The notes: generated from the letters alone by a model not told the origin. Positions 8,755 through 62,081 are shown, numbered from the stretch's first letter. The stretch: DNA of 64,000 nucleotides from an archaeon (GCA_009992215.1 JAACWB010000005.1:16676-80675); one strand, 5' to 3'. Numbers and translations are program-made.

Positions 8755-8925
8755 TTAATTTATTGTGTGTAGCCTTGCGATGGCTTTTTTAATTTCTTTT
8801 GCTTTTGAACTTCCTTGGCCAGTTTTAGCTTTAGCCTTTACTAATTCCAATTTTAGTTCTTTTAATTTCTTTTCTTTTTCTTCCTTTTTCATGTCTTTAA
8901 TTTGTTTTGCTTTTAATATTGCCAT
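8755..8925 (-). CDS. rpl29: 50S ribosomal protein uL29 (56 aa, below the ORF-track cutoff)
   Basis: Own translation: MAILKAKQIKDMKKEEKEKKLKELKLELVKAKAKTGQGSSKAKEIKKAIARLHTIN. Fits the L29 pattern and the slot directly after rps3. Confidence 0.75.
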   Translation of the reverse strand: MAILKAKQIKDMKKEEKEKKLKELKLELVKAKAKTGQGSSKAKEIKKAIARLHTIN

Positions 8926-16268: not shown

Positions 16269-17744
16269 ATGCAATTAAAGATTAAGACATCCGAATGGGC
16301 TGCAGGAATTCCTGTTTCCATGTTGAATCACAAGACAGCACAAAAGTTAGGTGTTCATGCAGGGGACAGAATAACAATTAAAACTATTTCTAAAAATTCT
16401 AAACAAATGACAACAATTGTTGACACTGTTGATAAATTAGTTGGGGCAAACCATATTGCTGTTTCTGAAGAAGTAAAAAAAATATTATCTTTAAGAGAAG
16501 AACAGACTGTGGATGTTTCTTTTATGGATGCTCCTGAAAGTGTTAATTACATAAAGAAAAAATTAGTTGGAGAGGAATTGACTCATGATGAAGTAAAATC
16601 AATTATTGCAGATGTTGTAAATAATACGCTATCCGAACCAGAAGTTAGTGTTTTTGTTTCTGCAATGTATAAAAATGGTATGACTTTCAAAGAAACTGTT
16701 GCTTTAGTTGATGCCATTTTGTCTTCGGGAAAAACACTTTCTTTTAGAAATAAATATGTTGTTGACAAACATTGTATCGGGGGAATTGCTGGAAACAGAA
16801 CTACACCAATAGTTGTTTCAATTTGTGCAGCTGCTGGTCTTACTTTTCCTAAAACTTCTTCAAGGGCAATAACATCTGCTGCTGGAACTGCTGATTGTAT
16901 TGAAGTTTTGAGTCCCGTTGAATTTAGTATGGATGAATTAAAAAAAATAGTCCAAAAAACTGGGGCTTGTCTCACTTGGGGAGGAGCGCTTGGAATGGTT
17001 CCTGCCGATTCAAAAATAATTAAAGTTGAAAAAATGTTAAAGCTTGACCCTGCTGCACAACTTTTGGCTTCAATTATGTCAAAGAAACTCGCTGCTGGAA
17101 GTAAATATATTTTAATTGATATTCCTTATGGAAAAAAAGCAAAGGTTTCTTTAGCGAAAGGAAAAATGCTAAAGAGAAAATTTGAACAATTAGCAAGACA
17201 CTTCAAAGTCAAGATTAAAGTTATTTTGACAAAAGCTACAGAACCAATTGGGAATGGTGTTGGTCCTGCTCTTGAAATCCGTGATGTTATGAATGTTTTA
17301 AATCCAAAAAAAGAAGGACCTCAAGACTTAGAAAAAAAGGCAATTTATTTGGCTTCTGAAATTTTTGAGATGACTATTTCAAAAAAAGGAAAAGGAAAAG
17401 CTTTAGCAAGAGAGATGCTTGAAAGCGGAAAAGCGTGGAAAAAGTTTCAAGAAATAATAAAAGCACAGAATGGAAGAGTGAAAGAAATTATTCCTTCAAA
17501 AATTTCTCATACTGTTTGTTCTCCGAAAAAAGGAAAAATAAAAGATATTGATAATCATTTAATTAATTATCTTGCAAGAGTTGCGGGTTGTCCGATGGAT
17601 AAATATTCAGGAGTTTATTTGCATCACCACATCGGAGACAAAGTTAAACACAATGAACCATTACTTACAATTTATGCTGAATCTAAACCAAGACTTAAGG
17701 AAGCACTAAAGTATTATGAAAATAAAAAACCAATAAGGATTTGA
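16269..17744 (+). CDS. deoA: AMP phosphorylase (archaeal thymidine-phosphorylase-family DeoA)
   Basis: About 490 aa. N-terminal extra domain MQLKIKTSEWAAGIPVSMLNHKTAQKLGVHAGDRITIKT, then VDKHCIGGIAGNRTTPIVV (glycosyl-transferase family 3 core). This is the archaeal AMP phosphorylase architecture. Confidence 0.8.
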   Translation: MQLKIKTSEWAAGIPVSMLNHKTAQKLGVHAGDRITIKTISKNSKQMTTIVDTVDKLVGANHIAVSEEVKKILSLREEQTVDVSFMDAPESVNYIKKKLVGEELTHDEVKSIIADVVNNTLSEPEVSVFVSAMYKNGMTFKETVALVDAILSSGKTLSFRNKYVVDKHCIGGIAGNRTTPIVVSICAAAGLTFPKTSSRAITSAAGTADCIEVLSPVEFSMDELKKIVQKTGACLTWGGALGMVPADSKIIKVEKMLKLDPAAQLLASIMSKKLAAGSKYILIDIPYGKKAKVSLAKGKMLKRKFEQLARHFKVKIKVILTKATEPIGNGVGPALEIRDVMNVLNPKKEGPQDLEKKAIYLASEIFEMTISKKGKGKALAREMLESGKAWKKFQEIIKAQNGRVKEIIPSKISHTVCSPKKGKIKDIDNHLINYLARVAGCPMDKYSGVYLHHHIGDKVKHNEPLLTIYAESKPRLKEALKYYENKKPIRI

Positions 17745-18543: not shown

Positions 18544-18623
18544 GCCTCCATCGCATAGTGGTATTGCACCGGACTTGAGATCCGGGCCCTTTGGGCTCGC
18601 AGGTTCGATTCCTGCTGGGGGCG
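18544..18623 (+). tRNA. tRNA-Ser (anticodon TGA), class II with long variable arm, no encoded CCA
   Basis: Hand fold: acceptor GCCTCCA/TGGGGGC, D arm GCA-TAGTGGTAT-TGC, anticodon arm CCGGA-CTTGAGA-TCCGG, variable arm GCCCTTTGGGCTC, T arm GCAGG-TTCGATT-CCTGC, discriminator G. Confidence 0.85.
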
Positions 18624-18737
18624 CTAAAAGAAGGGTTCTTCGGAGCCCTTTTTTTATTTTATTTTCTTTTAGCTTTCCACTGGTCCTCGCTTCGCTGTGG
18701 TTTCTCATATTTTTCAAATATTCCAAAAGGGGGCGCT
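18617..18737 (+). repeat. Direct repeat GGGGGCGCT (tRNA-Ser 3' end) at 18617-18625 and 18729-18737
   Basis: Exact 9-mer copies 112 nt apart, each followed by a UUCG-capped hairpin and a T tract. Confidence 0.9.
18631..18657 (+). terminator. Hairpin plus T tract after tRNA-Ser
   Basis: AAGGGTTC-TTCG-GAGCCCTT followed by TTTTTTT. Confidence 0.6.
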
Positions 18738-18741
18738 GAAT

Positions 18742-18770
18742 AAGGAACTCTTCGGAGTTCCTTTTTCTTT
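18742..18770 (+). terminator. Second UUCG hairpin plus T tract after the duplicated tRNA-Ser 3' end
   Basis: AAGGAACTC-TTCG-GAGTTCCTT followed by a T-rich run. Confidence 0.55.
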
Positions 18771-18809
18771 TTACTTAAAACTTAAAAATATCTTATTCAT
18801 AATTATAGG

Positions 18810-24733: not shown

Positions 24734-25483
24734 TTATGAATAATTTATTGAAAAAACATGCTTGGTTAAAATATTTGCTAATTCTTTTGAATCAAAACAG
24801 GCACTCACTCCTTTAATTTTAACTAATTCATTTAATTTTTTATATTGTTCTATTACTTTTTTAAAATCAGTTCCATCTTTTTGGTATGAATAAGAAAGAG
24901 CGTCTAAAGGAGATTTATGTCCTGAAATAAAATCTCCAAACCAAAAAGCATAAGCCTCATTGGATTCATTACTAACTGATTCAGGCAACATCCAAAAAAT
25001 ATTACTATAACTAAAATCTTTTTTCATATTTATTCCCACATCTCTTTCTAAAAATTCATGAAATATTATGTGGCCATATTCATGAGAAATTATTAACTTA
25101 AAATTTTCTTCTGGAGAGATTCTTTTTTCAAGACCTTTTTCATTTAAAACTGTTCCAGGTTCCTGAAGATTTCCAACATAAAAATTTGTTAAGGGATGCC
25201 AAACTCCTTTTTTATCTCTTGTTGTAGCTCCTTGTGCTTCAATATTCCAAGAATAATAAATATTTCTTTTATCTAATTTAATTGGAGTCTTTTTGTTTAT
25301 TTTTTTGATAATTTCATTGTTAATTTCTTCTCCTCTTCCTTCAACTAAAGTTGAATTATCAAACCTTTCCTTTATTAAATATTGAATTAATTTTCTATCT
25401 TTCTCCATATCTTCTGAAAATTTAATTGGTTTCGGAGGATAAATTGAATTTTCTAAATTTAATTTATATTTTGATTTTGTCAT
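24734..25483 (-). CDS. Putative zinc metalloprotease-like protein (HExxH)
   Basis: Single HEYGH motif (LIISHEYGHIIFHEF). No further family assignment possible. Confidence 0.45.
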   Translation of the reverse strand: MTKSKYKLNLENSIYPPKPIKFSEDMEKDRKLIQYLIKERFDNSTLVEGRGEEINNEIIKKINKKTPIKLDKRNIYYSWNIEAQGATTRDKKGVWHPLTNFYVGNLQEPGTVLNEKGLEKRISPEENFKLIISHEYGHIIFHEFLERDVGINMKKDFSYSNIFWMLPESVSNESNEAYAFWFGDFISGHKSPLDALSYSYQKDGTDFKKVIEQYKKLNELVKIKGVSACFDSKELANILTKHVFSINYS

Positions 25484-25533: not shown

Positions 25534-25930
25534 ACAAGTCAAGGAGCTAACTTTCGAGAGTCTGGCATTAAATTGTCGAGTGTTTGAAATGTGAACATTG
25601 ATTCTTGAGGAAGGTCCGCGCACCCCGAGTTTCCGTTATGGACTCTTAGGACAAAATCATCGAGGAAATCTCGAGCGTTGTGAAGCGCAGCTCTGGTACA
25701 GAAACGACACAGCTCATTTGGAGTTATGACTCTTGCGATGAACGGCGAAGAATGAGATTTGATGAAACGAGCATCTTGATTGGTGCAAGGGTAACAGTTA
25801 GTTTATAGTAAGTGATTGTTAGTTTTTAGCAAACACAGAAAAAATTAATGAAGTACGCCCGCTTAGTTGGATGTTAGCACATTTGGTCTGAATACAGCAA
25901 ATGACAGAACGTGGCCTAACCTTGACTTGT
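25534..25930 (+). ncRNA. rnpB: Structured ncRNA, probably RNase P RNA (core about 25543-25882; maximal span closed by an 11-bp terminal helix)
   Basis: ORF-free and visibly GC-richer than its flanks. CR-I-like GAGGAAGGTCCGCGCACCCC at about 25607-25626; GGTACAGAAACG; GGTGCAAGGGTAACAG; CR-V-like ACAGAA...CCCGCTTAG at about 25825-25865. AGCTAAC (25545-25551) pairs with GTTAGC (25873-25878). ACAAGTCAAGG (25534-25544) pairs with CCTTGACTTGT (25920-25930). I could not recover a clean P4 pairing by eye. Confidence 0.5.
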
Positions 25931-26037
25931 ATTTCTTTTCCACGTTCTTACAAAACGACCGGCAAATCAGGGATTTACCCATCGGACATAAAAGCTCACT
26001 TCATTCGGTTTCATGTCAGTGGACTACCTTGACTTGT
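25920..26037 (+). repeat. Direct repeat CCTTGACTTGT at 25920-25930 and 26027-26037; inverted copy at 25534-25544
   Basis: Exact 11-mers 107 nt apart. Extended similarity GGCCTAACCTTGACTTGT versus GGACTACCTTGACTTGT. Confidence 0.9.
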
Positions 26038-26047
26038 TTATTTTTAA

Positions 26048-28887: not shown

Positions 28888-30372
28888 ATGAAAAAATATC
28901 CTAAACAAATTCAGGAAATGTATGATTCTTTAAATGAAAAACAGCGAAGATATACAAATTTGGAATTAGCTAATCCAAAGAATGGAGAATATATGCTTGC
29001 AGTTTATCACCTTATTCCAGGTGGAGATTTAAACATGTTACAAGCCGCTGCTGAAGTTGCTGCTGAATCTTCTACGGGTACAAATTTTACAGTAAAAACT
29101 GAAACTGATTTTTCACATGAGATGAATGCCTTAACTTACAAAGTTGATTTGAAAAATAATTTAGTTTGGATGGCTTTTCCTTGGAGACTTTTTGATAGAG
29201 GAGGAAATATCCAAAATATTTTAACATATATCGTTGGAAATGTCCTTGGAATGAAAGAAATTAATGCATTAAAACTTCTTGATCTTTGGTTTCCACCTTC
29301 AATGCTTGAACAATATGATGGGCCAAGTTATACGCTTGAAGATATGAAAAAATATCTTGGAATATCAAAGAAGAAAGATAGACCTGTACTTGGAACAATT
29401 ATTAAACCAAAAATGGGATTAACGTCTTCAGAATATGCAGAAGTATGTTATGACTTTTGGAAAGGCGGAGGAGATTTTGTAAAAAATGATGAGCCTCAAG
29501 CTAATCAAGATTTTTGCCCTTATGACAAAATGGTCAAATATGTAAAAGAAGCAATGGACAAAGCCGTTAAAGAAACAGGGAACAAAAAAGTTCACTCATT
29601 TAATGTTTCGGCTTCTGATTATGATACTATGATTGAAAGATGTGAGATGATTCGTGCTGCCGGATTTGAACCTGGAAGTTATGCATTTTTAATTGATGGA
29701 CTTACTGCTGGATGGATGGCAGTTCAAACTCTAAGACGTAAATATCCTGATGTGTTTATTCATTTTCATAGAGCAATGCATGGTGCATTTACTCGTCCTG
29801 AAAATCCAATTGGATTTAGTGTTTTAATTCTTTCAAAGTTTGCAAGACTTGCAGGAGTAAGTGGTATTCATACAGGAACTGCAGGGGTTGGAAAAATGAA
29901 AGGAAATGCAAACGATGATATAATTCCCGCACATAATATTTTGTCTCTTATCGGAGAGGGATATTTCTTTGAACAATCATGGGCAAGAGTACCAAAAACT
30001 GACAAAGATGTTATACGATTAGCAAAGGAAGACCATCTTCACCACGTGATTTTGAGTGATGATTCATGGAGAGGAATGAAAAAGTGTGCGCCTATAATTT
30101 CTGGTGGCCTTAATCCAACTAAATTAAAGCCGTTTATTGATTTGATGAAGAGTACTGACTTTATTACTACAATGGGTGCTGGAGTTCATGCTCATCCTGA
30201 TGGTACTCAAGCTGGTGCAAAAGCATTAGTTCAAGCGATGGAAGCATATAACAAAAATATTTCCATAGATGTTTATGCAAAGACACATCCTGAACTAAAA
30301 AAGGCGATTGAATTTTTTACAAAACCAAAGAAAGAAGTTAAAGCGGAAGAATCTGTTGAGAAAGCAGCTTGA
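28888..30372 (+). CDS. rbcL: RuBisCO large subunit, form II/III-like
   Basis: GTIIKPKMGL; GGGDFVKNDEPQANQDFCP (form II-type KNDE, carbamyl-Lys and metal ligands intact); HFHRAMHGA; SGIHTGTAGVGKMKG. Confidence 0.9.
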   Translation: MKKYPKQIQEMYDSLNEKQRRYTNLELANPKNGEYMLAVYHLIPGGDLNMLQAAAEVAAESSTGTNFTVKTETDFSHEMNALTYKVDLKNNLVWMAFPWRLFDRGGNIQNILTYIVGNVLGMKEINALKLLDLWFPPSMLEQYDGPSYTLEDMKKYLGISKKKDRPVLGTIIKPKMGLTSSEYAEVCYDFWKGGGDFVKNDEPQANQDFCPYDKMVKYVKEAMDKAVKETGNKKVHSFNVSASDYDTMIERCEMIRAAGFEPGSYAFLIDGLTAGWMAVQTLRRKYPDVFIHFHRAMHGAFTRPENPIGFSVLILSKFARLAGVSGIHTGTAGVGKMKGNANDDIIPAHNILSLIGEGYFFEQSWARVPKTDKDVIRLAKEDHLHHVILSDDSWRGMKKCAPIISGGLNPTKLKPFIDLMKSTDFITTMGAGVHAHPDGTQAGAKALVQAMEAYNKNISIDVYAKTHPELKKAIEFFTKPKKEVKAEESVEKAA

Positions 30373-36442: not shown

Positions 36443-37057
36443 TTAATCCTTTCTTATCTCCATTACCAAAGTTTGATTAAAAAAACTTTTATTTTTGAAT
36501 GGAAAATAATTTGCCCACCTAAATTCGGGAAAATCTGTAACGTATGAAATCCTATTTATCTTCACCCCAAAGGGAATTACTTTACTAAAAGATTTTAATG
36601 TCCAATGGTGCAAATGTGGCGTCAATTCAATTGGGGGATTTTCTAATTTTGGAAAAAGTTTGTAAAGAAAAAAATTAAGATTTGGAATTGAAATAATACA
36701 TTTATCAGTATGTTTAAATGCTTGATTAAGAATTTCTTTTGGATTTTCTAAATGTTCAATTACATCTGCAAAAATTATATAATCAAATTTTTCTTTGAAA
36801 GGAAAATTATTTTTTCCAGGACTAACCTTTACATAATTAAAATTTTTATGTTTTAATTTAGAATCTTCAATTAAATCACAACCTGTAACCAAAGCATTAC
36901 TTTTTTCAATTAATATTTTTGATAAATCTCCTTGCCAACAACCAAAATCTAAAACCTTCTTATTTTTTTCTAACATCTCTGCAATTTTATAATATTTAGG
37001 CAAAGGTTTAGTGTTATCAATTAATTTTCTTCTAATGTTTCTTAATAATTTTTTCAT
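36443..37057 (-). CDS. Class I SAM-dependent methyltransferase
   Basis: VLDFGCWQGD and IIFADVIEHLENP. Confidence 0.7.
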   Translation of the reverse strand: MKKLLRNIRRKLIDNTKPLPKYYKIAEMLEKNKKVLDFGCWQGDLSKILIEKSNALVTGCDLIEDSKLKHKNFNYVKVSPGKNNFPFKEKFDYIIFADVIEHLENPKEILNQAFKHTDKCIISIPNLNFFLYKLFPKLENPPIELTPHLHHWTLKSFSKVIPFGVKINRISYVTDFPEFRWANYFPFKNKSFFNQTLVMEIRKD

Positions 37058-38507: not shown

Positions 38508-39124
38508 ATTTTCACAAATTTAGCCCAATATCTTTTCAGTTTAGGAGATCTTTTGCAAAGGAGTTCAACATTTCCCATTTGCAAAGCAGCTTTAATGTCT
38601 TCTATGTTTTTTGATTTTGAATCTATTAGGGTGATTCCATTTCCTATCTCAAAAAGAAAATGTGCGTCACTTCCAGCGATTCCAGGTTTTTTTATTTTAT
38701 TTGCTAACATTTTTGCCATTTCATTTCCTGAATTTCCCACTCTAGAATTAAAAATTTCAATCAAATCTATAGAGTTTAATACTTCATCAGTCAAAATATG
38801 ATGTATAGAGGGATGAGGAATTACTGCAATGCCTTTTTGTTTTTTTATCTCTTTTATTACTTCAAAAAATTTTTTTGTCTCAATTTTTTTTGTCAAAAAA
38901 AGACCAATTATATCTCCATATTCTGTGTCAATTTCCTCTCCACAAATGACAATTAACTCCTTGGATAAATTTTTTAGTTTTTCTCCCCCAAGAAATTCCT
39001 CGTGATCAGTAATTGCTAAAATATCTATTTTTTCTTTTTTAGCTTTTTTTAGAATTTTATTTATTTTTGATTTTGAATCAAATGAAAATTCTGAATGTAC
39101 ATGTAAATCTGCTCTTAATTTCAT
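38492..39124 (-). CDS. PHP-domain metal-dependent phosphoesterase
   Basis: ADLHVHSEFSFDS...LAITDHE...IPHP...GSDAH. Confidence 0.75.
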   Translation of the reverse strand: MKLRADLHVHSEFSFDSKSKINKILKKAKKEKIDILAITDHEEFLGGEKLKNLSKELIVICGEEIDTEYGDIIGLFLTKKIETKKFFEVIKEIKKQKGIAVIPHPSIHHILTDEVLNSIDLIEIFNSRVGNSGNEMAKMLANKIKKPGIAGSDAHFLFEIGNGITLIDSKSKNIEDIKAALQMGNVELLCKRSPKLKRYWAKFVKIWRRR

Positions 39125-40239
39125 TTTTTAAAAAAATATTTCCAAATTGTTGAAAATATCCTAATCAAAGTAGGTAGAGGGTCATTAAAAAGATATTGTA
39201 TGTCTTTACCAATTGATCTATCTAATAAATCCCTTTTCCATTCTTTTTTTGCAAGTGATTTTTTTTTACTTGTTTTTATCCGAAGTGTATCTTCAGGTAG
39301 AATCCATTGAAATTTCTTTCCCAAAGGATATTTTTTGTTTTTTATTTTCTTACCTTTTATCAAATCAAAGGGAATTTTTCCAAAATTTAATCCACAAAAA
39401 ATAGATAAATCATAAGACCCCCAAAATTTTGCATTCATTTCTATAAAATAATATTTCCTTTTTTCCTGATTATAAATATACTCGAGCATAACTGGTCCTG
39501 TCCAATTCAATTTTTTTAAAAAACCTTTTGAAATTTTTTCTAATGTTTTATCATAAATACTCTCTGCACATGAACTTACTCCCCCTGATTCTGGGTATTG
39601 CCTAATCCTTTTATGTTGAAAAGTTTGTAGACAAGTTCCTTTGTAACAAAATGCAAAAAATCCTCTCCCTTCTCCAGAAATATGTTCTTGAACAATTTGT
39701 GTTCCAAAACTTAATCTATTAGATAAAAATTTTTTTAATTCTTTATTAGAACTTGCGTATTCTACTTTTTTTCCTTTTTCTTCTAAAGCGGACTTTATTA
39801 CAAAATTTTTCCCTTTAATTTTTTCAACATCAGAAACTCTTTTTATTATCCATGTTTTTGGGTACAACATTTTGAATTTATTTAATACTTTTTTAAGATA
39901 ATCTTTTCTTGAAATGGAATTAATCAAATGAAAATCAGATAAAATTATCTTTGAATTATTTTCAATTTCTTTCTTTATTTTAGAACATTCTTTATTGGTA
40001 AAATATCCAACGGGTAAAACCAAAGAGACATCATTTTTATTTAAAAAATTTAATAATTTATTTTGAAAATTTTTACGAGTATATTTAAATGATTTTTTTG
40101 AATATTTTGAAAATCGGGTTGGACTAAAACCTTCTGAACAAGTTGCAATACGCAATCCTTCTTTTCCCAAGCCCCTAACTATAGACAACGCATGTTTGTA
40201 ACGAGAATCGGTAACTAAAATATCATAATGTCTTTTCAT
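39121..40239 (-). CDS. ATP-grasp domain protein
   Basis: Carbamoyl-phosphate-synthase-like ATP-grasp pattern: FVIKSALEEKGKKV...IVQEHISGEGRGFFAF...GPVMLEYIY...YFIEMNAKFWGS. Confidence 0.65.
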   Translation of the reverse strand: MKRHYDILVTDSRYKHALSIVRGLGKEGLRIATCSEGFSPTRFSKYSKKSFKYTRKNFQNKLLNFLNKNDVSLVLPVGYFTNKECSKIKKEIENNSKIILSDFHLINSISRKDYLKKVLNKFKMLYPKTWIIKRVSDVEKIKGKNFVIKSALEEKGKKVEYASSNKELKKFLSNRLSFGTQIVQEHISGEGRGFFAFCYKGTCLQTFQHKRIRQYPESGGVSSCAESIYDKTLEKISKGFLKKLNWTGPVMLEYIYNQEKRKYYFIEMNAKFWGSYDLSIFCGLNFGKIPFDLIKGKKIKNKKYPLGKKFQWILPEDTLRIKTSKKKSLAKKEWKRDLLDRSIGKDIQYLFNDPLPTLIRIFSTIWKYFFKK

Positions 40240-49147: not shown

Positions 49148-49212
49148 TATCAAAAGAAAAACTCTCTATATATAAAGGTTATTGGATTAGAAATTATTCT
49201 CATTTTTTAATT

Positions 49213-49336
49213 AATAAAAAAGAAAATGAAACGCTCAAATTTCTTTCTTTGAAATTTGGCAAAAACAAGCTTAGACTTCGCTTAAATCTTGTTTTGACGA
49301 CTTGTCGTCTTTTAATGAATAAAAAAGAAAATGAAA
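49213..49336 (-). repeat. Direct repeat AATAAAAAAGAAAATGAAA at 49213-49231 and 49318-49336 (5S trailer)
   Basis: Exact 19-mers 105 nt apart. Extends to 27 nt with one mismatch when the flanks are included. Confidence 0.9.
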
Positions 49337-49446
49337 GACGACTTGAACAGTTCGCGTCTTGCGGGACACTACCATGGACAACGTAGGAAGCTTAACTTCT
49401 GTGTTCGGAAAGGGAACAGGTGTTTCCAACCTACTATGGCCGTCTT
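49335..49446 (-). rRNA. rrf: 5S ribosomal RNA
   Basis: Minus strand: AAGACGGCCATAGTAGGTTGGAAACACCTGTTCCCTTTCCGAACACAGAAGTTAAGCTTCCTACGTTGTCCATGGTAGTGTCCCGCAAGACGCGAACTGTTCAAGTCGTCTT. Contains the CCGAAC...GAAGTTAAGC core, and the ends pair (helix I). Confidence 0.85.
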
Positions 49447-49592: not shown

Positions 49593-49667
49593 TTATTTGT
49601 CTGGGTAACTCGGCTCGCAAGCTTAATTGCAGTTAAGTTACTCTAGACAATGAAAGCAATTAAACAT

Positions 49668-49743
49668 GCCTGGGTAACTCAGTCTGGATTAGAGTGCCAC
49701 CCTCCTAAGGTGGAAGTCGCAGGTTCAAATCCTGCCTCGGGCG
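49668..49743 (+). tRNA. tRNA-Arg (anticodon CCT)
   Basis: GCCTGGG-TA-ACTC-AGTCTGGATTA-GAGT-G-CCACC-CTCCTAA-GGTGG-AAGTC-GCAGG-TTCAAAT-CCTGC-CTCGGGC-G. Confidence 0.9.
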
Positions 49744-49850
49744 TTTTAATTTGAACCAAGACGTCGCAGGCTAACAACTTTGAAATTTTAATAAATGAAT
49801 ATAATGAATTTAAGAAATTTCACAAGTTGATAGTAAAATCCTGCCTCGGG
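49727..49850 (+). repeat. Direct repeat AAATCCTGCCTCGGG (tRNA-Arg 3' end) at 49727-49741 and 49836-49850
   Basis: Exact 15-mers 109 nt apart. Confidence 0.9.
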
Positions 49851-49854
49851 AGTT

Positions 49855-50328
49855 TTATGCTATAAAGGTTAAGATTATTGCAACATAAAAAAGAGTTATC
49901 AGCTGTGTTGTTATAAAATATTTTGCTGAAATTTCATAATTATTCTTTAATTTGAAAGTTACATAAATAAAAATTATCCATTCTAAAAATAATACATGAA
50001 AATAAATAAAAAATTGATTAAAAAAAGTTATTGCAAGTGTTCTAACTCCTGCGATAATAACAAAAGACAAAACCATGTTGAATAAAAATATAGAAAAATA
50101 TTCTTTTCTTCTTTCTATTGCCCCAATTCTAATTTTTCTTGTTAATTTTTTTGAAAATTCTGAAAAGACAAAACCAAAACTAAGCCCAATAAACCAAGAG
50201 ATATATGGCTTAATATATGTAAAAATTGTCTCGAAGATGTTAAAATAATATAACTCAAAAAAAGTTATAATTCCCATTAAAAAAAATAAAGAAAATTCCA
50301 ATAAAAAGAAATTTTTCTTTTCACTCAT
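49855..50328 (-). CDS. Hypothetical polytopic membrane protein (157 aa)
   Basis: Four to five hydrophobic segments; no motif recognised. Confidence 0.4.
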   Translation of the reverse strand: MSEKKNFFLLEFSLFFLMGIITFFELYYFNIFETIFTYIKPYISWFIGLSFGFVFSEFSKKLTRKIRIGAIERRKEYFSIFLFNMVLSFVIIAGVRTLAITFFNQFFIYFHVLFLEWIIFIYVTFKLKNNYEISAKYFITTQLITLFYVAIILTFIA

Positions 50329-50411: not shown

Positions 50412-50482
50412 GCGTGGATAGTTCAGTGGCAGAATCTCTGGCTTCCAACCAGATGACCTGGGTTCGAATCCCAGTCCGCGCA
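50412..50482 (+). tRNA. tRNA-Gly (anticodon TCC)
   Basis: GCGTGGA-TA-GTTC-AGTGGCA-GAAT-C-TCTGG-CTTCCAA-CCAGA-TGAC-CTGGG-TTCGAAT-CCCAG-TCCGCGC-A. Confidence 0.9.
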
Positions 50483-50609
50483 TATTCTTACTGGTCTTCG
50501 AACGAGACGTCATATTTTGGGTCGATTGGAAAACGACTCATCCAAAATATTCCATCAAGCCAATTATTCTTTCAGAAAAATCGACTTATCCCAAGTCCGC
50601 GCATATTCT
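50473..50609 (+). repeat. Direct repeat AGTCCGCGCATATTCT (tRNA-Gly 3' end plus 6 nt of trailer) at 50473-50488 and 50594-50609
   Basis: Exact 16-mers 121 nt apart. Confidence 0.9.
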
Positions 50610-59198: not shown

Positions 59199-60272
59199 TT
59201 ATTTGTTTTTTATAAGAACTCTTGCTTGCGTGGCATATGTTGAAATTATTCGTCCAGGATTATAGAATATCTTTTCTTTAGGAAAAGAAACATCTACTGA
59301 ATTGTTTGAGAGATTGATTAATCGTGCCAAATATTTCCCTTTTAATTTTATTTCTTTAAAATTGTTTTGTGTTTTATTAAAAAAATATTCTACCAATTCT
59401 TCATCACTTGCATTTTCAAAAAATTCTTCCTCTTTCTTTTCTTGTTTTCTTTTAAAATAATATCTTATTTCTGCAATAATAAAAGAAATTGCATAAGAAA
59501 ATAATGTCCATAAATAAAATTGTAATAAGTATTCATTTGGAATTTTACTTCCAAGAGGACTAATTTTTTGTAAAAGATATAATGCAATAAAGAAAAGAGG
59601 TATCAGTAAAATAGAAAAAACAGTGAAAGATTTAATTATCTTTTCTGAATTAGAGAGAATAACTAAAAACACTATTCCTACAAATATCAAGGAAAATTCT
59701 ATTGTTATTACAAATACTTCAATTGTAATTGAATTTGATAAATAGAAAAAGAAAGATACAATCAAAATTGATATTCCCTCAAACAAATAAAAGAATTTTT
59801 TTCTTCTGAATAATGGGCGACTCTCCCATACGCTGTTTAAAGAAAAATTGTACCAAAAGCCTTTATTGAATCCTAAAGACAGAACAAACACAAGGAAAAA
59901 CGAAAGCCACAGTTCAGAATATTTCCAGTTAGAGGAAAAGGGTTTATCTACAACAGAATAACCGTCTTTTTCATTGTAATAAAATTTTGTGATTACTCCT
60001 TGTGAAATTATTCTTGAAGGAAAAAAAGATTGAATAAAAGTTGTATCAGTTTCTTTTTTCTCCAAGTAACCAATTTTAAACAAACGCACTGTTTCATATT
60101 TGTCTAAACAGAAGGGGTAAATTTCAAGAGTATCAAGGGTTTCTGTTTTAATTGTTTTTCTCACAAGAACCATATTTTTTTGACATAATGTGTCAAATAA
60201 GATTATGTCTTCTTGACTGAAAACCAAAAATCCTGAAACCAATAAATAAATTAAAATAATTAGTTTTTTCAT
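59199..60272 (-). CDS. Hypothetical membrane protein: signal peptide, extracytoplasmic domain, about 6 TM, charged C-terminal domain
   Basis: MKKLIILIYLLVSGFLVFSQ, hydrophobic core at residues about 125-265, then KRKQEKKEEEFFENASDEE. Confidence 0.5.
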   Translation of the reverse strand: MKKLIILIYLLVSGFLVFSQEDIILFDTLCQKNMVLVRKTIKTETLDTLEIYPFCLDKYETVRLFKIGYLEKKETDTTFIQSFFPSRIISQGVITKFYYNEKDGYSVVDKPFSSNWKYSELWLSFFLVFVLSLGFNKGFWYNFSLNSVWESRPLFRRKKFFYLFEGISILIVSFFFYLSNSITIEVFVITIEFSLIFVGIVFLVILSNSEKIIKSFTVFSILLIPLFFIALYLLQKISPLGSKIPNEYLLQFYLWTLFSYAISFIIAEIRYYFKRKQEKKEEEFFENASDEELVEYFFNKTQNNFKEIKLKGKYLARLINLSNNSVDVSFPKEKIFYNPGRIISTYATQARVLIKNK

Positions 60273-61280: not shown

Positions 61281-62081
61281 TTATTCATTTTTAATTTCTG
61301 AACATTCAAAATATTTATTATACTCTTTGAAAATTAAATTATTTGATTTTTTAGAAATTTCACAGGCATTTTCTAATCTTTCTTTTGTTGTTTCACTTGT
61401 TTTTCCCCAATAAATTGAAGCTCGCAAAACATTTGATTTATCTTCCATAACCCCTTCAAATGAGCAATTTCCACCAAACCAGGGAGTTTGTATACGATAA
61501 AAATCTTCCCCTGATATTGGATGAGAATGAATTGCAATTAATTGATTTTCAAATTTGTAAATAAAATATCCAGAGGAATCAATTATTTCCAATTTGTATG
61601 CTTTTTCAAATTTTATTTTTAACCCAAAATTATTTGCAATTACTGTGTCTTTTGTCGAGGTTAAATATACTCCATAATTTATTTCTCCTTGTTTATGAAC
61701 TAAATCGTCATCATGAGTATACGGACAAATGTAGAGGGTTGAATCATAATATTTGAAAGCCCATCTTCCTGAATTTTTCATGTGACTTCCCAAAACTTCA
61801 CTTGTTAATCCTCCAATTTTATTCCAATCTCCATTACATCCTTCAATTAATTCTTCATGTTTATGATTCTTGTCAATTAAAACATAATAGGACCAAACAG
61901 AAGAACTTTGTATTGAAAAAGGTGTTTTCATTCCATCTGAAGTTTCTATTCTATATTCATGATTTCCCACTTCAACTGTAAACTTTGAAATATCTGAAAA
62001 ATCGTAATCAAACAATTCCAAAATTTCTTCACAAGAAAAAAATAATAAAGTTGAAATTAAAATTAAAAATAATTTTTTCAT
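61281..62081 (-). CDS. Putative lipoprotein (266 aa)
   Basis: MKKLFLILISTLLFFSCEE, a lipobox-like L-F-F-S-C. Confidence 0.5.
   Translation of the reverse strand: MKKLFLILISTLLFFSCEEILELFDYDFSDISKFTVEVGNHEYRIETSDGMKTPFSIQSSSVWSYYVLIDKNHKHEELIEGCNGDWNKIGGLTSEVLGSHMKNSGRWAFKYYDSTLYICPYTHDDDLVHKQGEINYGVYLTSTKDTVIANNFGLKIKFEKAYKLEIIDSSGYFIYKFENQLIAIHSHPISGEDFYRIQTPWFGGNCSFEGVMEDKSNVLRASIYWGKTSETTKERLENACEISKKSNNLIFKEYNKYFECSEIKNE

Follow-up and report, generated by a model that had tools for sequence, protein, structure and literature searches.

Candidate mobile modules that duplicate the ends of stable-RNA genes in archaea related to Pacearchaeota and Woesearchaeota

The subject of this work is a terminal duplication found in a 64,000-nt stretch of archaeal DNA (GCA_009992215.1, JAACWB010000005.1:16676-80675), here called the window, whose G+C content is about 30%. 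The 3' end of a tRNA-Ser(UGA) gene is repeated a short distance downstream, beyond a small insert, and 3' terminal duplications of this kind are present at five of the seven stable-RNA genes of the window. An earlier note on this DNA had counted five such genes with one architecture; the number is right, and the set consists of tRNA-Ser, tRNA-Arg, tRNA-Gly, 5S rRNA and RNase P RNA. The pattern is present in more than 40 independent metagenome-assembled genomes (MAGs) and metagenome contigs, and no description of it was found in the literature searched. Duplication of the gene terminus, fixed boundaries, empty sites, antisense segments matched to the host gene, scaffolds shared between different genes and decay of the second copy are all observed. 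We put at roughly one in two the probability that they reflect a family of small, hairpin-rich modules, devoid of open reading frames (ORFs), that enter stable-RNA genes at a loop close to the end and duplicate the gene terminus.

The tRNA-Ser(UGA) gene lacks an encoded CCA and occupies positions 18544-18623 of the + strand (ARAGORN; Rfam tRNA model, 57.4 bits). The nonamer GGGGGCGCT, whose first copy takes in the final 6 nt of the acceptor 3' strand along with the discriminator and 2 nt of the trailer, lies at 18617-18625 and again at 18729-18737, exactly where the earlier note had placed it. That note described a duplication of 9 nt plus hairpins, which is indeed present, but it missed the true extent: a repeat search lengthens the duplication to 57 nt, with 70% identity and a spacing of 112 nt, beginning in the T loop (ATTCC). 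Copy 1 (18608-18664, + strand) comprises the end of the T loop, the 3' strand of the T stem, the acceptor 3' strand, the discriminator, a first hairpin and a T tract; copy 2 (18720-18776, + strand) contains ATTCC, AAAA in place of TGCT, GGGGGCGCT, a second hairpin and a T tract. The replaced block is the T-stem TGCT at 18613-18616, which reads AAAA at 18725-18728, with the flanking 5 and 9 nt identical; it is an odd block substitution, which would abolish T-stem pairing in the pseudo-copy.

Hairpin 1 (18631-18650, AAGGGTTC/TTCG/GAGCCCTT) has 8 pairs, one of them G-U, and hairpin 2 (18742-18763, AAGGAACTC/TTCG/GAGTTCCTT) has 9 Watson-Crick pairs, each being followed by a T tract. Both stems are thus fully paired despite their different sequence, as had been noticed before, although not by Watson-Crick pairs throughout; the differences between them are a double (compensatory) substitution, a paired indel and a wobble. 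The relative L093 (survey loci carry the prefix L) displays the full tRNA-Ser architecture with other hairpin sequences and two nested modules; its hairpins are unrelated to those of the window in both positions, and pairing is retained in both copies of each. Since both window hairpins are still paired and those of L093 are unrelated, a constraint on, or the repeated creation of, a hairpin after tRNA-Ser is likely. By sequence scan, both hairpins have the features of bacterial-type intrinsic terminators (a G+C-rich hairpin plus a T tract), and a terminator scan ranks them as the strongest terminator-like sites in 20 kb; the same scan indicates that hairpin terminators are not enriched in the genome (7 found, 8.6 expected). 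Archaeal termination requires the T tract alone.

Between the two copies stands first an antisense segment, called X' below (TCTTTTAGCTTTCCA; 18665-18679, + strand), which according to RNA folding pairs with 18616-18631, that is, with the tRNA 3' end and trailer, enclosing hairpin 1 and its T tract. Three of these pairs are G-U, and the segment shows three C-to-T changes. The insert body follows (18680-18719, + strand) and bears blocks that are also found in the tRNA-Gly insert. The motif ACTGGTCYTCG has 2 matches in 64 kb, one in each of the two inserts, that of the Ser insert being ACTGGTCCTCG at 18679-18689, from 1 nt ahead of the insert body; the shared block TCATATTTT lies at 18705-18713; and AAATATTCCA, which likewise matches only twice, once per insert, lies at 18716-18725 and reaches 6 nt beyond the body. 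The claim that three ordered blocks are common to the two inserts is therefore borne out: the collinear chain (7+9+10 exact nt) was equalled by none of 3000 dinucleotide shuffles, and a plain local alignment is only marginal (p=0.033). The tRNA-Ser case would be an older, partly decayed member of the family, in which the duplicated segment would originally have run from the T loop through the hairpin to the T tract (57 nt) and would later have diverged to 70%. The locus is 100% identical across contigs of four independent samples and assemblers, and hence is not an assembly artefact. The window strain is present in samples ERZ17986938, 3300007987, SRR6053076 and SRR29616068.

The spacing of the 3'-end repeat copies at the five window genes is confined to 105-121 nt. 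The gene for archaeal-type RNase P RNA (25534-25930, + strand; Rfam RF00373, 83.6 bits, E 1.4e-23) is skipped by a default scan, its score falling short of the Rfam gathering score of 84; it occupies a 565-nt ORF-free gap near tRNA-Phe, and was found through a repeat of spacing 107. The P1 strands ACAAGTCAAGG and CCTTGACTTGT fix the limits of the gene, and the neighbourhood of RNase P RNA and tRNA-Phe is seen again in metagenome loci. The duplication (25919-26045, + strand; copies at 25919-25938 and 26026-26045, spacing 107) consists of the P1 3' strand and the T tract, and the insert opens with CCACGTTCT (25940-25948), the reverse complement of AGAACGTGG (25906-25914). At 5S rRNA (duplication at 49197-49342, - strand), a repeat of 35 nt with 89% identity and spacing 105 is found at 49302-49336 and 49197-49231; read on the gene strand, the insert opens with AAAGACGAC (49304-49312 in + strand coordinates), the pairing partner of GTCGTCTTT at the 3' end of 5S (49334-49342, likewise + strand). 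At tRNA-Arg, the 3'-type duplication (49727-49857, + strand) has copies at 49727-49748 and 49836-49857 (22 nt, 95%, spacing 109), and its insert opens with ATTTGAACC (49749-49757), antisense to the T arm GGTTCAAAT. At tRNA-Gly(UCC), the copies of the 3'-type duplication (50470-50609, + strand) lie at 50470-50488 and 50591-50609 (19 nt, 95%, spacing 121), and the insert opens with ACTGGTCTTCGAAC (50490-50503), antisense to GTTCGAATCCCAGT. The tRNA-Arg(CCU) gene has in addition a 5'-type duplication (49597-49679, + strand), in which TGTCTGGGTAACTC (49597-49610) recurs as TGCCTGGGTAACTC (49666-49679) around a 55-nt insert containing the antisense copy AGTTACTCTAGACA. No 3' duplicate was found at tRNA-Leu and tRNA-Phe of the window. 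The earlier note had missed the 57-nt length, the antisense segment, the RNase P RNA gene and the spread of the pattern throughout the lineage.

This spread was assessed in related genomes. The SecF protein encoded in the window has 60-74% identity to proteins of MAGs labelled Pacearchaeota, Woesearchaeota or Nanoarchaeota, labels being taken as deposited, and 80 Pacearchaeota/Woesearchaeota MAG loci fetched through SecF provided 158 tRNAs identified by ARAGORN; the survey loci represent two genomic neighbourhoods, about 12 kb, per genome. A 3' duplicate was scored when the last 14 nt of a tRNA recurred within 300 nt downstream with at most 2 mismatches, so that old duplication events escape detection. 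On this basis 36 of the 158 tRNAs carry the duplicate, and both controls, the upstream 14-mer and the reverse complement, give 0/158, which excludes chance. In a second, independent sample, made up of 120 metagenome contigs retrieved by means of an RNase P RNA motif, the duplicate is present at 7 of 71 tRNAs, all of them tRNA-Phe, and controls are again 0. Boundaries are defined by tRNA structure: 31 of 36 repeats have their start within the 7-nt T loop, most commonly at C56, and 33 of 36 end 1-6 nt beyond the discriminator; every repeat reaches at least 1 nt beyond it. Repeat lengths are variable (15-57 nt); for the 36 repeats the median length is 19.5 nt and the median period 92 nt. At three sites (L037, L048 and L066) the unit forms tandem arrays. 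No distant second repeat copy or longer element was found within +/-6 kb of the 36 short events.

A mirror type exists at 5' ends, where the first 14 nt of the tRNA recur upstream in 8 of the 158 tRNAs; it is found in the window (49597-49679) and at L013, L023, L028, L042, L049, L066 and L074. Here the first 14-23 nt of the tRNA are repeated 50-107 nt upstream, and the inserts mirror those of the 3' type, with the antisense segment at the gene-proximal end. A TATA-like promoter (TTTATAAAACTTTTTATA) lies about 25-30 nt upstream of the distal copy, and the 5' insert should therefore form a long 5' leader of the transcript.

The inserts are 23-153 nt long and contain no ORF. Their anatomy reads, in order, X, repeat 1, a short variable linker, X', often X'', conserved scaffold hairpins and repeat 2, where X stands for the stretch of the gene immediately inside the repeat, X' for its reverse complement and X'' for a sense copy. 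X' follows a linker of 2-12 nt and complements gene sequence inside or across the repeat boundary. In tRNA inserts it complements the T arm, as in GGATTCGAACC, and in GATGAGAACC with two central mismatches; over the first 40 nt downstream, the exact antisense match to the T arm has a mean length of 6.4 nt at tRNAs with the repeat and 4.4 nt at those without (p=2e-9). The antisense heptamer tracks the T-loop variant of its own host: AATCGAA is found at 5 of 7 TTCGATT hosts and at none of 35 others, ATTCGAA is confined to TTCGAAT hosts, and ATTTGAA is found at TTCAAAT hosts and, as a G-U-compatible variant (5 cases), at TTCGAAT hosts. Some tRNAs scored as having no repeat nonetheless carry the heptamer. 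At RNase P RNA and 5S rRNA, X' and the gene end form perfect 9-bp stems whose loop is repeat copy 1. Where X'' is present, X' and X'' compose near-loopless palindromes, such as GACGAC-AA-GTCGTC at 5S, GGGAATCGAAC-AGGTTCGATTAC at tRNA-Phe and GAACCTGC-TC-GCAGGTT at tRNA-Arg. Host 7-mers occur at 2-2.7 times expectation and at the insert start, and the scaffold hairpins that come after X'' are not host-derived; indeed, more than 80% of each insert is not derived from the host gene.

Several other descriptions of the inserts were tried. They have no terminal inverted repeats, the longest match being 4.3 nt against 4.1 nt in shuffles (n=29). No insert matches Rfam 15 on either strand, at the gathering score for the window or at E<=1 in five loci, and two module cores gave 0 matches to 2.9 million viral contigs. 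A comparison with other window sequence as a possible source gave only noise. A degenerate tandem tRNA or cloverleaf made of insert and second copy was rejected, as no tRNA-model match was obtained on either strand at E<=1; this reading is also opposed by the 5S and RNase P cases, which have the same period despite their longer genes. A hammerhead or box C/D reading of GATGAGAACC...GGTTTCG was likewise abandoned, because the core positions disagree with it and boxes are missing from the GATTYGAACC variants. An enrichment test for hairpins with loop CTTGT returned only 7 matches under a criterion that was too strict. For bulge-helix-bulge splicing of the unit that lies between the two copies, inspection of several junctions by hand gave no convincing motif, and the T-loop palindrome TTCGAA yields a 6-bp helix without bulges. 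As for introns, tRNA-Arg(CCU) has an anticodon-loop intron of about 43 nt in L010, L042 and L045, and none in the window (49667-49744) or in L009; L009 is a near relative of L010 and differs from it in the intron, so that intron gain or loss is recent in the clade. BLAST found no kinship between the inserts and the tRNA-Arg intron.

Related scaffolds are found at different genes. Family A (...CTCACCTGC-TTC-GCAGGTTTCCC..GGGATGAC...) is present at tRNA-Arg and tRNA-Leu, and family B (GATKNGAASCC-loop-GGGTTT followed by two hairpins) at Leu, Arg, Gly and Phe. The tRNA-Leu insert of L049 shares a B2 module with the tRNA-Gly inserts of L071 and L045, at 92% identity along 64 nt; by manual reading, the tRNA-Leu inserts of L042 and L049 are less alike than those of L049 Leu and L071 Gly. 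The 3' part of B1 is identical over 27/27 nt between tRNA-Gly (L042) and tRNA-Arg (L045). The genes at L042 2021-2110 and L063 5721-5810, called tRNA-Glu(TTC) by ARAGORN, read as tRNA-Gly(UCC) with a short intron after the anticodon, which led to the wrong call, and part of the B1 sharing is consequently orthologous. Within a subfamily the right junction stands at a fixed T-loop position (...GCGACCCA|CGAATCC; ...CTCGCGTGA|GAATCC), and the left junction is variable. In about 1.6 Mb searched, related copies lie solely beside tRNAs, in tRNA orientation. The family B consensus structure has one common helix and almost no covariation.

Empty sites are found at several of these genes. The earlier note had proposed looking for them at tRNA-Ser in close relatives; in L088, an identical tRNA-Ser within the same gene order (AMP phosphorylase, a 97-aa ORF, tRNA-Ser, VTT protein) is followed directly by TTTTTTCTTTT (T6CT4), with neither hairpin nor second copy. 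At the Leu-Arg junction, the site is empty in L011, L016 and L074, where tRNA-Leu lies 0-11 nt from tRNA-Arg, and filled with insert and second copy in nine other genomes. The 5S insert is unique to the window gene and absent from 49 of 50 5S genes. A second lineage of RNase P RNA has one or two extra copies of the last ~20 nt plus T tract in L094, L102 (=L163), L171 and L188, and empty sites in L146, L177, L189 and L201. In L188 (minus strand, ~1822-2050) the RNase P RNA has three copies of its 3' end, separated by two different hairpin inserts, and this layout is reminiscent of a small repeat-spacer array; one of the two hairpins combines fragments of the gene end in sense and antisense orientation (ATTCCC..TTAC / TTGGGAT). 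Second copies are also subject to decay: that of L016 is a fossil which retains CTTGGGCG while the tRNA now reads CCCGGGCG, and repeat 2 of L010 has been lost.

Taken together, empty sites, locally matching repeats, structure-defined boundaries, shared scaffolds and the restriction to stable-RNA ends argue for an insertion process that preserves the gene. Insertion would duplicate the terminal segment; an intact gene would stay adjacent to the insert, and the second copy, on the far side, would be a footprint. As the probable mechanism, a DNA or cDNA strand would fold back on the terminal hairpin region of the gene, giving the near-loopless X'/X'' palindrome; the folded strand would then copy the module and re-enter the gene via loop microhomology, in a form of copy-choice synthesis. 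A near-loopless host palindrome and a variable linker are the products expected from fold-back (snap-back) and template-switching synthesis, and microhomology-guided re-entry would place the right junction at a fixed point of the T loop, which is universally conserved. Reverse transcriptases of diversity-generating retroelements (DGRs) are reported to be prevalent in Pacearchaeota and Woesearchaeota (review PMC6349945), and this reported abundance in the clade makes a version with an RNA template plausible. A DGR pair of template and variable repeats was considered at tRNA-Ser and rejected: of about 14 mismatches in the Ser repeat, about 7 coincide with an adenine in copy 2 and 3 with one in copy 1 (manual column count), so that they are not adenine-specific, and no reverse transcriptase is present among the scanned window ORFs.

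Several points weigh against modules of this kind. A scan of the 20 larger window ORFs revealed no transposase, integrase or reverse transcriptase, and we know of no autonomous partner element. Only the start of the insert is host-derived, and the origin of the scaffold is not accounted for. The end of the repeat beyond the discriminator in every case means that the template is not simply a tRNA trimmed by tRNase Z. Near-identical module pairs inside one genome were not seen within the ~12 kb surveyed per genome, and beyond Ser and Gly no mutual similarity was found among the remaining pairs of window inserts. Finally, in the orthologous tRNA-Gly inserts of L042, L049 and L063 the repeats are perfect though the tRNA 3' ends differ, which needs re-insertion, conversion or selection.

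Among the alternatives, the one that survives best, while still unlikely, is that these loci are scars of repair or replication formed without a mobile element, by microhomology-mediated, snap-back and template-switch repair of breaks or stalled forks at heavily transcribed, hairpin-rich RNA genes, with a tandem duplication of the gene end and templated filler as the result. The near-loopless palindromes made of antisense and sense host copies (5S, tRNA-Phe), the enrichment of host 7-mers, the variable linkers and, in the second RNase P lineage, an AAGG junction microhomology together with the hairpin of sense and antisense gene-end pieces speak in its favour. Indeed, polymerase-theta-type (snap-back) end joining and duplication-triplication/inverted-duplication (DUP-TRP/INV-DUP) rearrangements combine in the same manner a direct duplication, an inverted adjacent copy, variable linkers and microhomology. 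These rearrangements do not, however, involve conserved non-local scaffolds across loci and species, nor are they confined to stable-RNA ends, whereas here scaffold hairpins are 90-100% identical between different tRNA genes of different genomes, the bulk of each insert is foreign to the host gene, and the same boundaries recur in dozens of species. In its pure form, repair scarring accounts for the palindromes but not for the conserved scaffolds.

Slightly less probable again is a selected functional module, either a back-up terminator or processing domain, a trailer or leader small RNA, or a tRNA-like fold, in which the second copy must match the gene end. Such a function would agree with the pairing kept by the Ser hairpins across the differing copies of the window and L093, with fold-back stems that persist with G-U pairs, and with the perfect repeats of the orthologous tRNA-Gly inserts despite their differing tRNAs; moreover, in several tRNA cases repeat 1 has no T tract, and the insert should be co-transcribed. 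A further argument for it is that ATTTGAA is found at TTCGAAT hosts (5 cases) and ATTCGAA never at TTCAAAT hosts, but this G-U asymmetry is equally expected from a C-to-T mutation bias. Empty sites, in addition, are common and evidently viable, among them the hairpin-free tRNA-Ser of L088; repeat 2 decays, is lost or fossilises (L010, L016); the inserts have no Rfam match on either strand, and family B offers one helix with almost no covariation; at 5S, RNase P RNA and Ser, copy 1 has its own T tract, and most transcripts should end before the insert. A selected RNA function is least improbable for the conserved hairpin after tRNA-Ser. Two suggestions of the earlier note belong here. Tandem terminator modules fit Ser, 5S and RNase P RNA, whose repeat includes the T tract, but not those tRNA cases whose second copy abuts the next tRNA, nor the decay and loss of second copies; a trailer-encoded small RNA is possible where repeat 1 lacks a T tract, but again the absence of Rfam matches to the inserts does not favour it.

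Elements that integrate into tRNA genes classically leave a direct repeat which begins in the T loop and stops shortly beyond the tRNA 3' end, and the loci might accordingly be attL/attR deletion remnants of plasmids or viruses with a tyrosine integrase crossing over in the tRNA T loop, an explanation that we regard as improbable. The repeat extending from the T loop to the 3' end, the regenerated gene and the tandem arrays, which resemble repeated integration, are features in common with tyrosine-recombinase integration. Unlike in such elements, no integrase is present among the scanned window ORFs, the inserts are ORF-free and about 100 nt long (23-153 nt), no long event accompanies the 36 short ones within +/-6 kb, the hosts reach beyond tRNA or tmRNA genes to 5S and RNase P RNA, a 5' mirror type exists, and a host-antisense segment is present. 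Furthermore, one module is found at different tRNAs, always with repeats derived locally from the host, and module cores are absent from the 2.9 million viral contigs. The earlier suggestion of att-like scars of a small non-autonomous element is hence only partly retained: the element is supported by empty sites, locally matching repeats and modules at different tRNAs, and the integrase label is not supported in view of the ORF-free inserts, the lack of a long element within +/-6 kb, the 5S and RNase P hosts and the 5' type. A small non-autonomous element is nonetheless the best of the three options put forward in that note. Chance similarity or assembly artefact, which could be suspected because AT-rich sequence gives many short repeats, as in other repeat families of the window, is negligible in view of the 0/158 controls, the four identical independent assemblies and the presence of the pattern in more than 40 MAGs and contigs.

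The gene-preserving modules favoured here resemble several known systems in part. Casposons and CRISPR spacer integration also produce a long target duplication (15-27 nt or more) over an RNA-gene 3' end and arrays of repeat, insert and repeat. However, the duplication here is variable, in contrast with the fixed ~14-15 bp of casposons and Cas1, and is set by RNA-gene landmarks; terminal inverted repeats are lacking, the inserts are far smaller, and cas1 was not seen among the 20 scanned window ORFs. Target-primed retroposition by elements without long terminal repeats (non-LTR) and short interspersed nuclear elements (SINEs) similarly involves variable target duplications, non-autonomous copies, RNA-gene targets and a compact genome, but the present case is archaeal, lacks an A-rich tail and has no reverse transcriptase known as its partner. 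Mobile bulge-helix-bulge introns are also small structured inserts at a tRNA loop, with an exon-complementary segment and relatives at different tRNAs; here, by contrast, the first gene copy is complete and no splicing is needed, and a terminal duplication is not an intron feature. Nor do the loci conform to MITEs (miniature inverted-repeat transposable elements), since terminal inverted repeats are absent, the repeats are variable (15-57 nt) rather than short and of fixed length, and all copies in the roughly 1.6 Mb searched lie beside stable-RNA genes instead of being dispersed. A new archaeal mobile class, in which a ~100-nt RNA or DNA module would be directed to RNA-gene ends by antisense pairing, with the antisense segment serving as guide or primer, written by fold-back and template switching, possibly with a reverse transcriptase, and harmless to the essential single-copy RNA genes of minimal DPANN genomes, is a tentative proposal, for which the odds are lower than for the modules as such.

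The coding content of the window includes ribosomal proteins, CysRS, a form III RuBisCO and an AMP-phosphorylase-like enzyme. The AMP-phosphorylase-like ORF of glycosyltransferase family 3 (16269-17744) and the large subunit of the form III-like RuBisCO (28888-30372) both belong to the AMP pathway by which archaea salvage nucleotides. Four ORFs of 249-372 aa (39121-40239, 59199-60272, 61281-62081 and 24734-25483) have no Pfam match at E<=0.001, and a metagenome scan with the 249-aa protein encoded beside RNase P RNA returned zero relatives. Two direct-repeat pairs, at 36890-37031 and 8787-8914, have a spacing of ~108-111 nt, lie away from known RNA genes in AT-rich sequence, and may be due to chance. 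Among the loci fetched, the Pacearchaeota-like SecF contigs L008, L048, L056, L058 and L060 sit in MAGs labelled Bacteroidales, Spirochaetes, Patescibacteria, 'bacterium' and Pirellulales, probably as a result of mis-binning; L008 and L048 also hold the neighbouring 5S gene.

Whatever their origin, the second copies are pseudo-tRNA fragments, able to mislead tRNA annotation as well as att-site and prophage finders, and displaced copies such as that of L016 keep older states of the tRNA and are useful for dating. Fold-back palindromes derived from the host would record the chemistry of insertion, and could indicate that DPANN archaea have an activity, so far unrecognised, of a template-switching polymerase or reverse transcriptase. 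No loci of a genome are more conserved, or tolerate less, than stable-RNA genes. If the proposed reading is true, small modules that enter their ends while leaving the gene intact would give selfish DNA a new safe-harbour strategy in the streamlined genomes of symbionts, following a logic akin to that of tRNA-integrating phages and Pol III-targeted retrotransposons, yet with elements of only ~100 nt and without a known enzyme.

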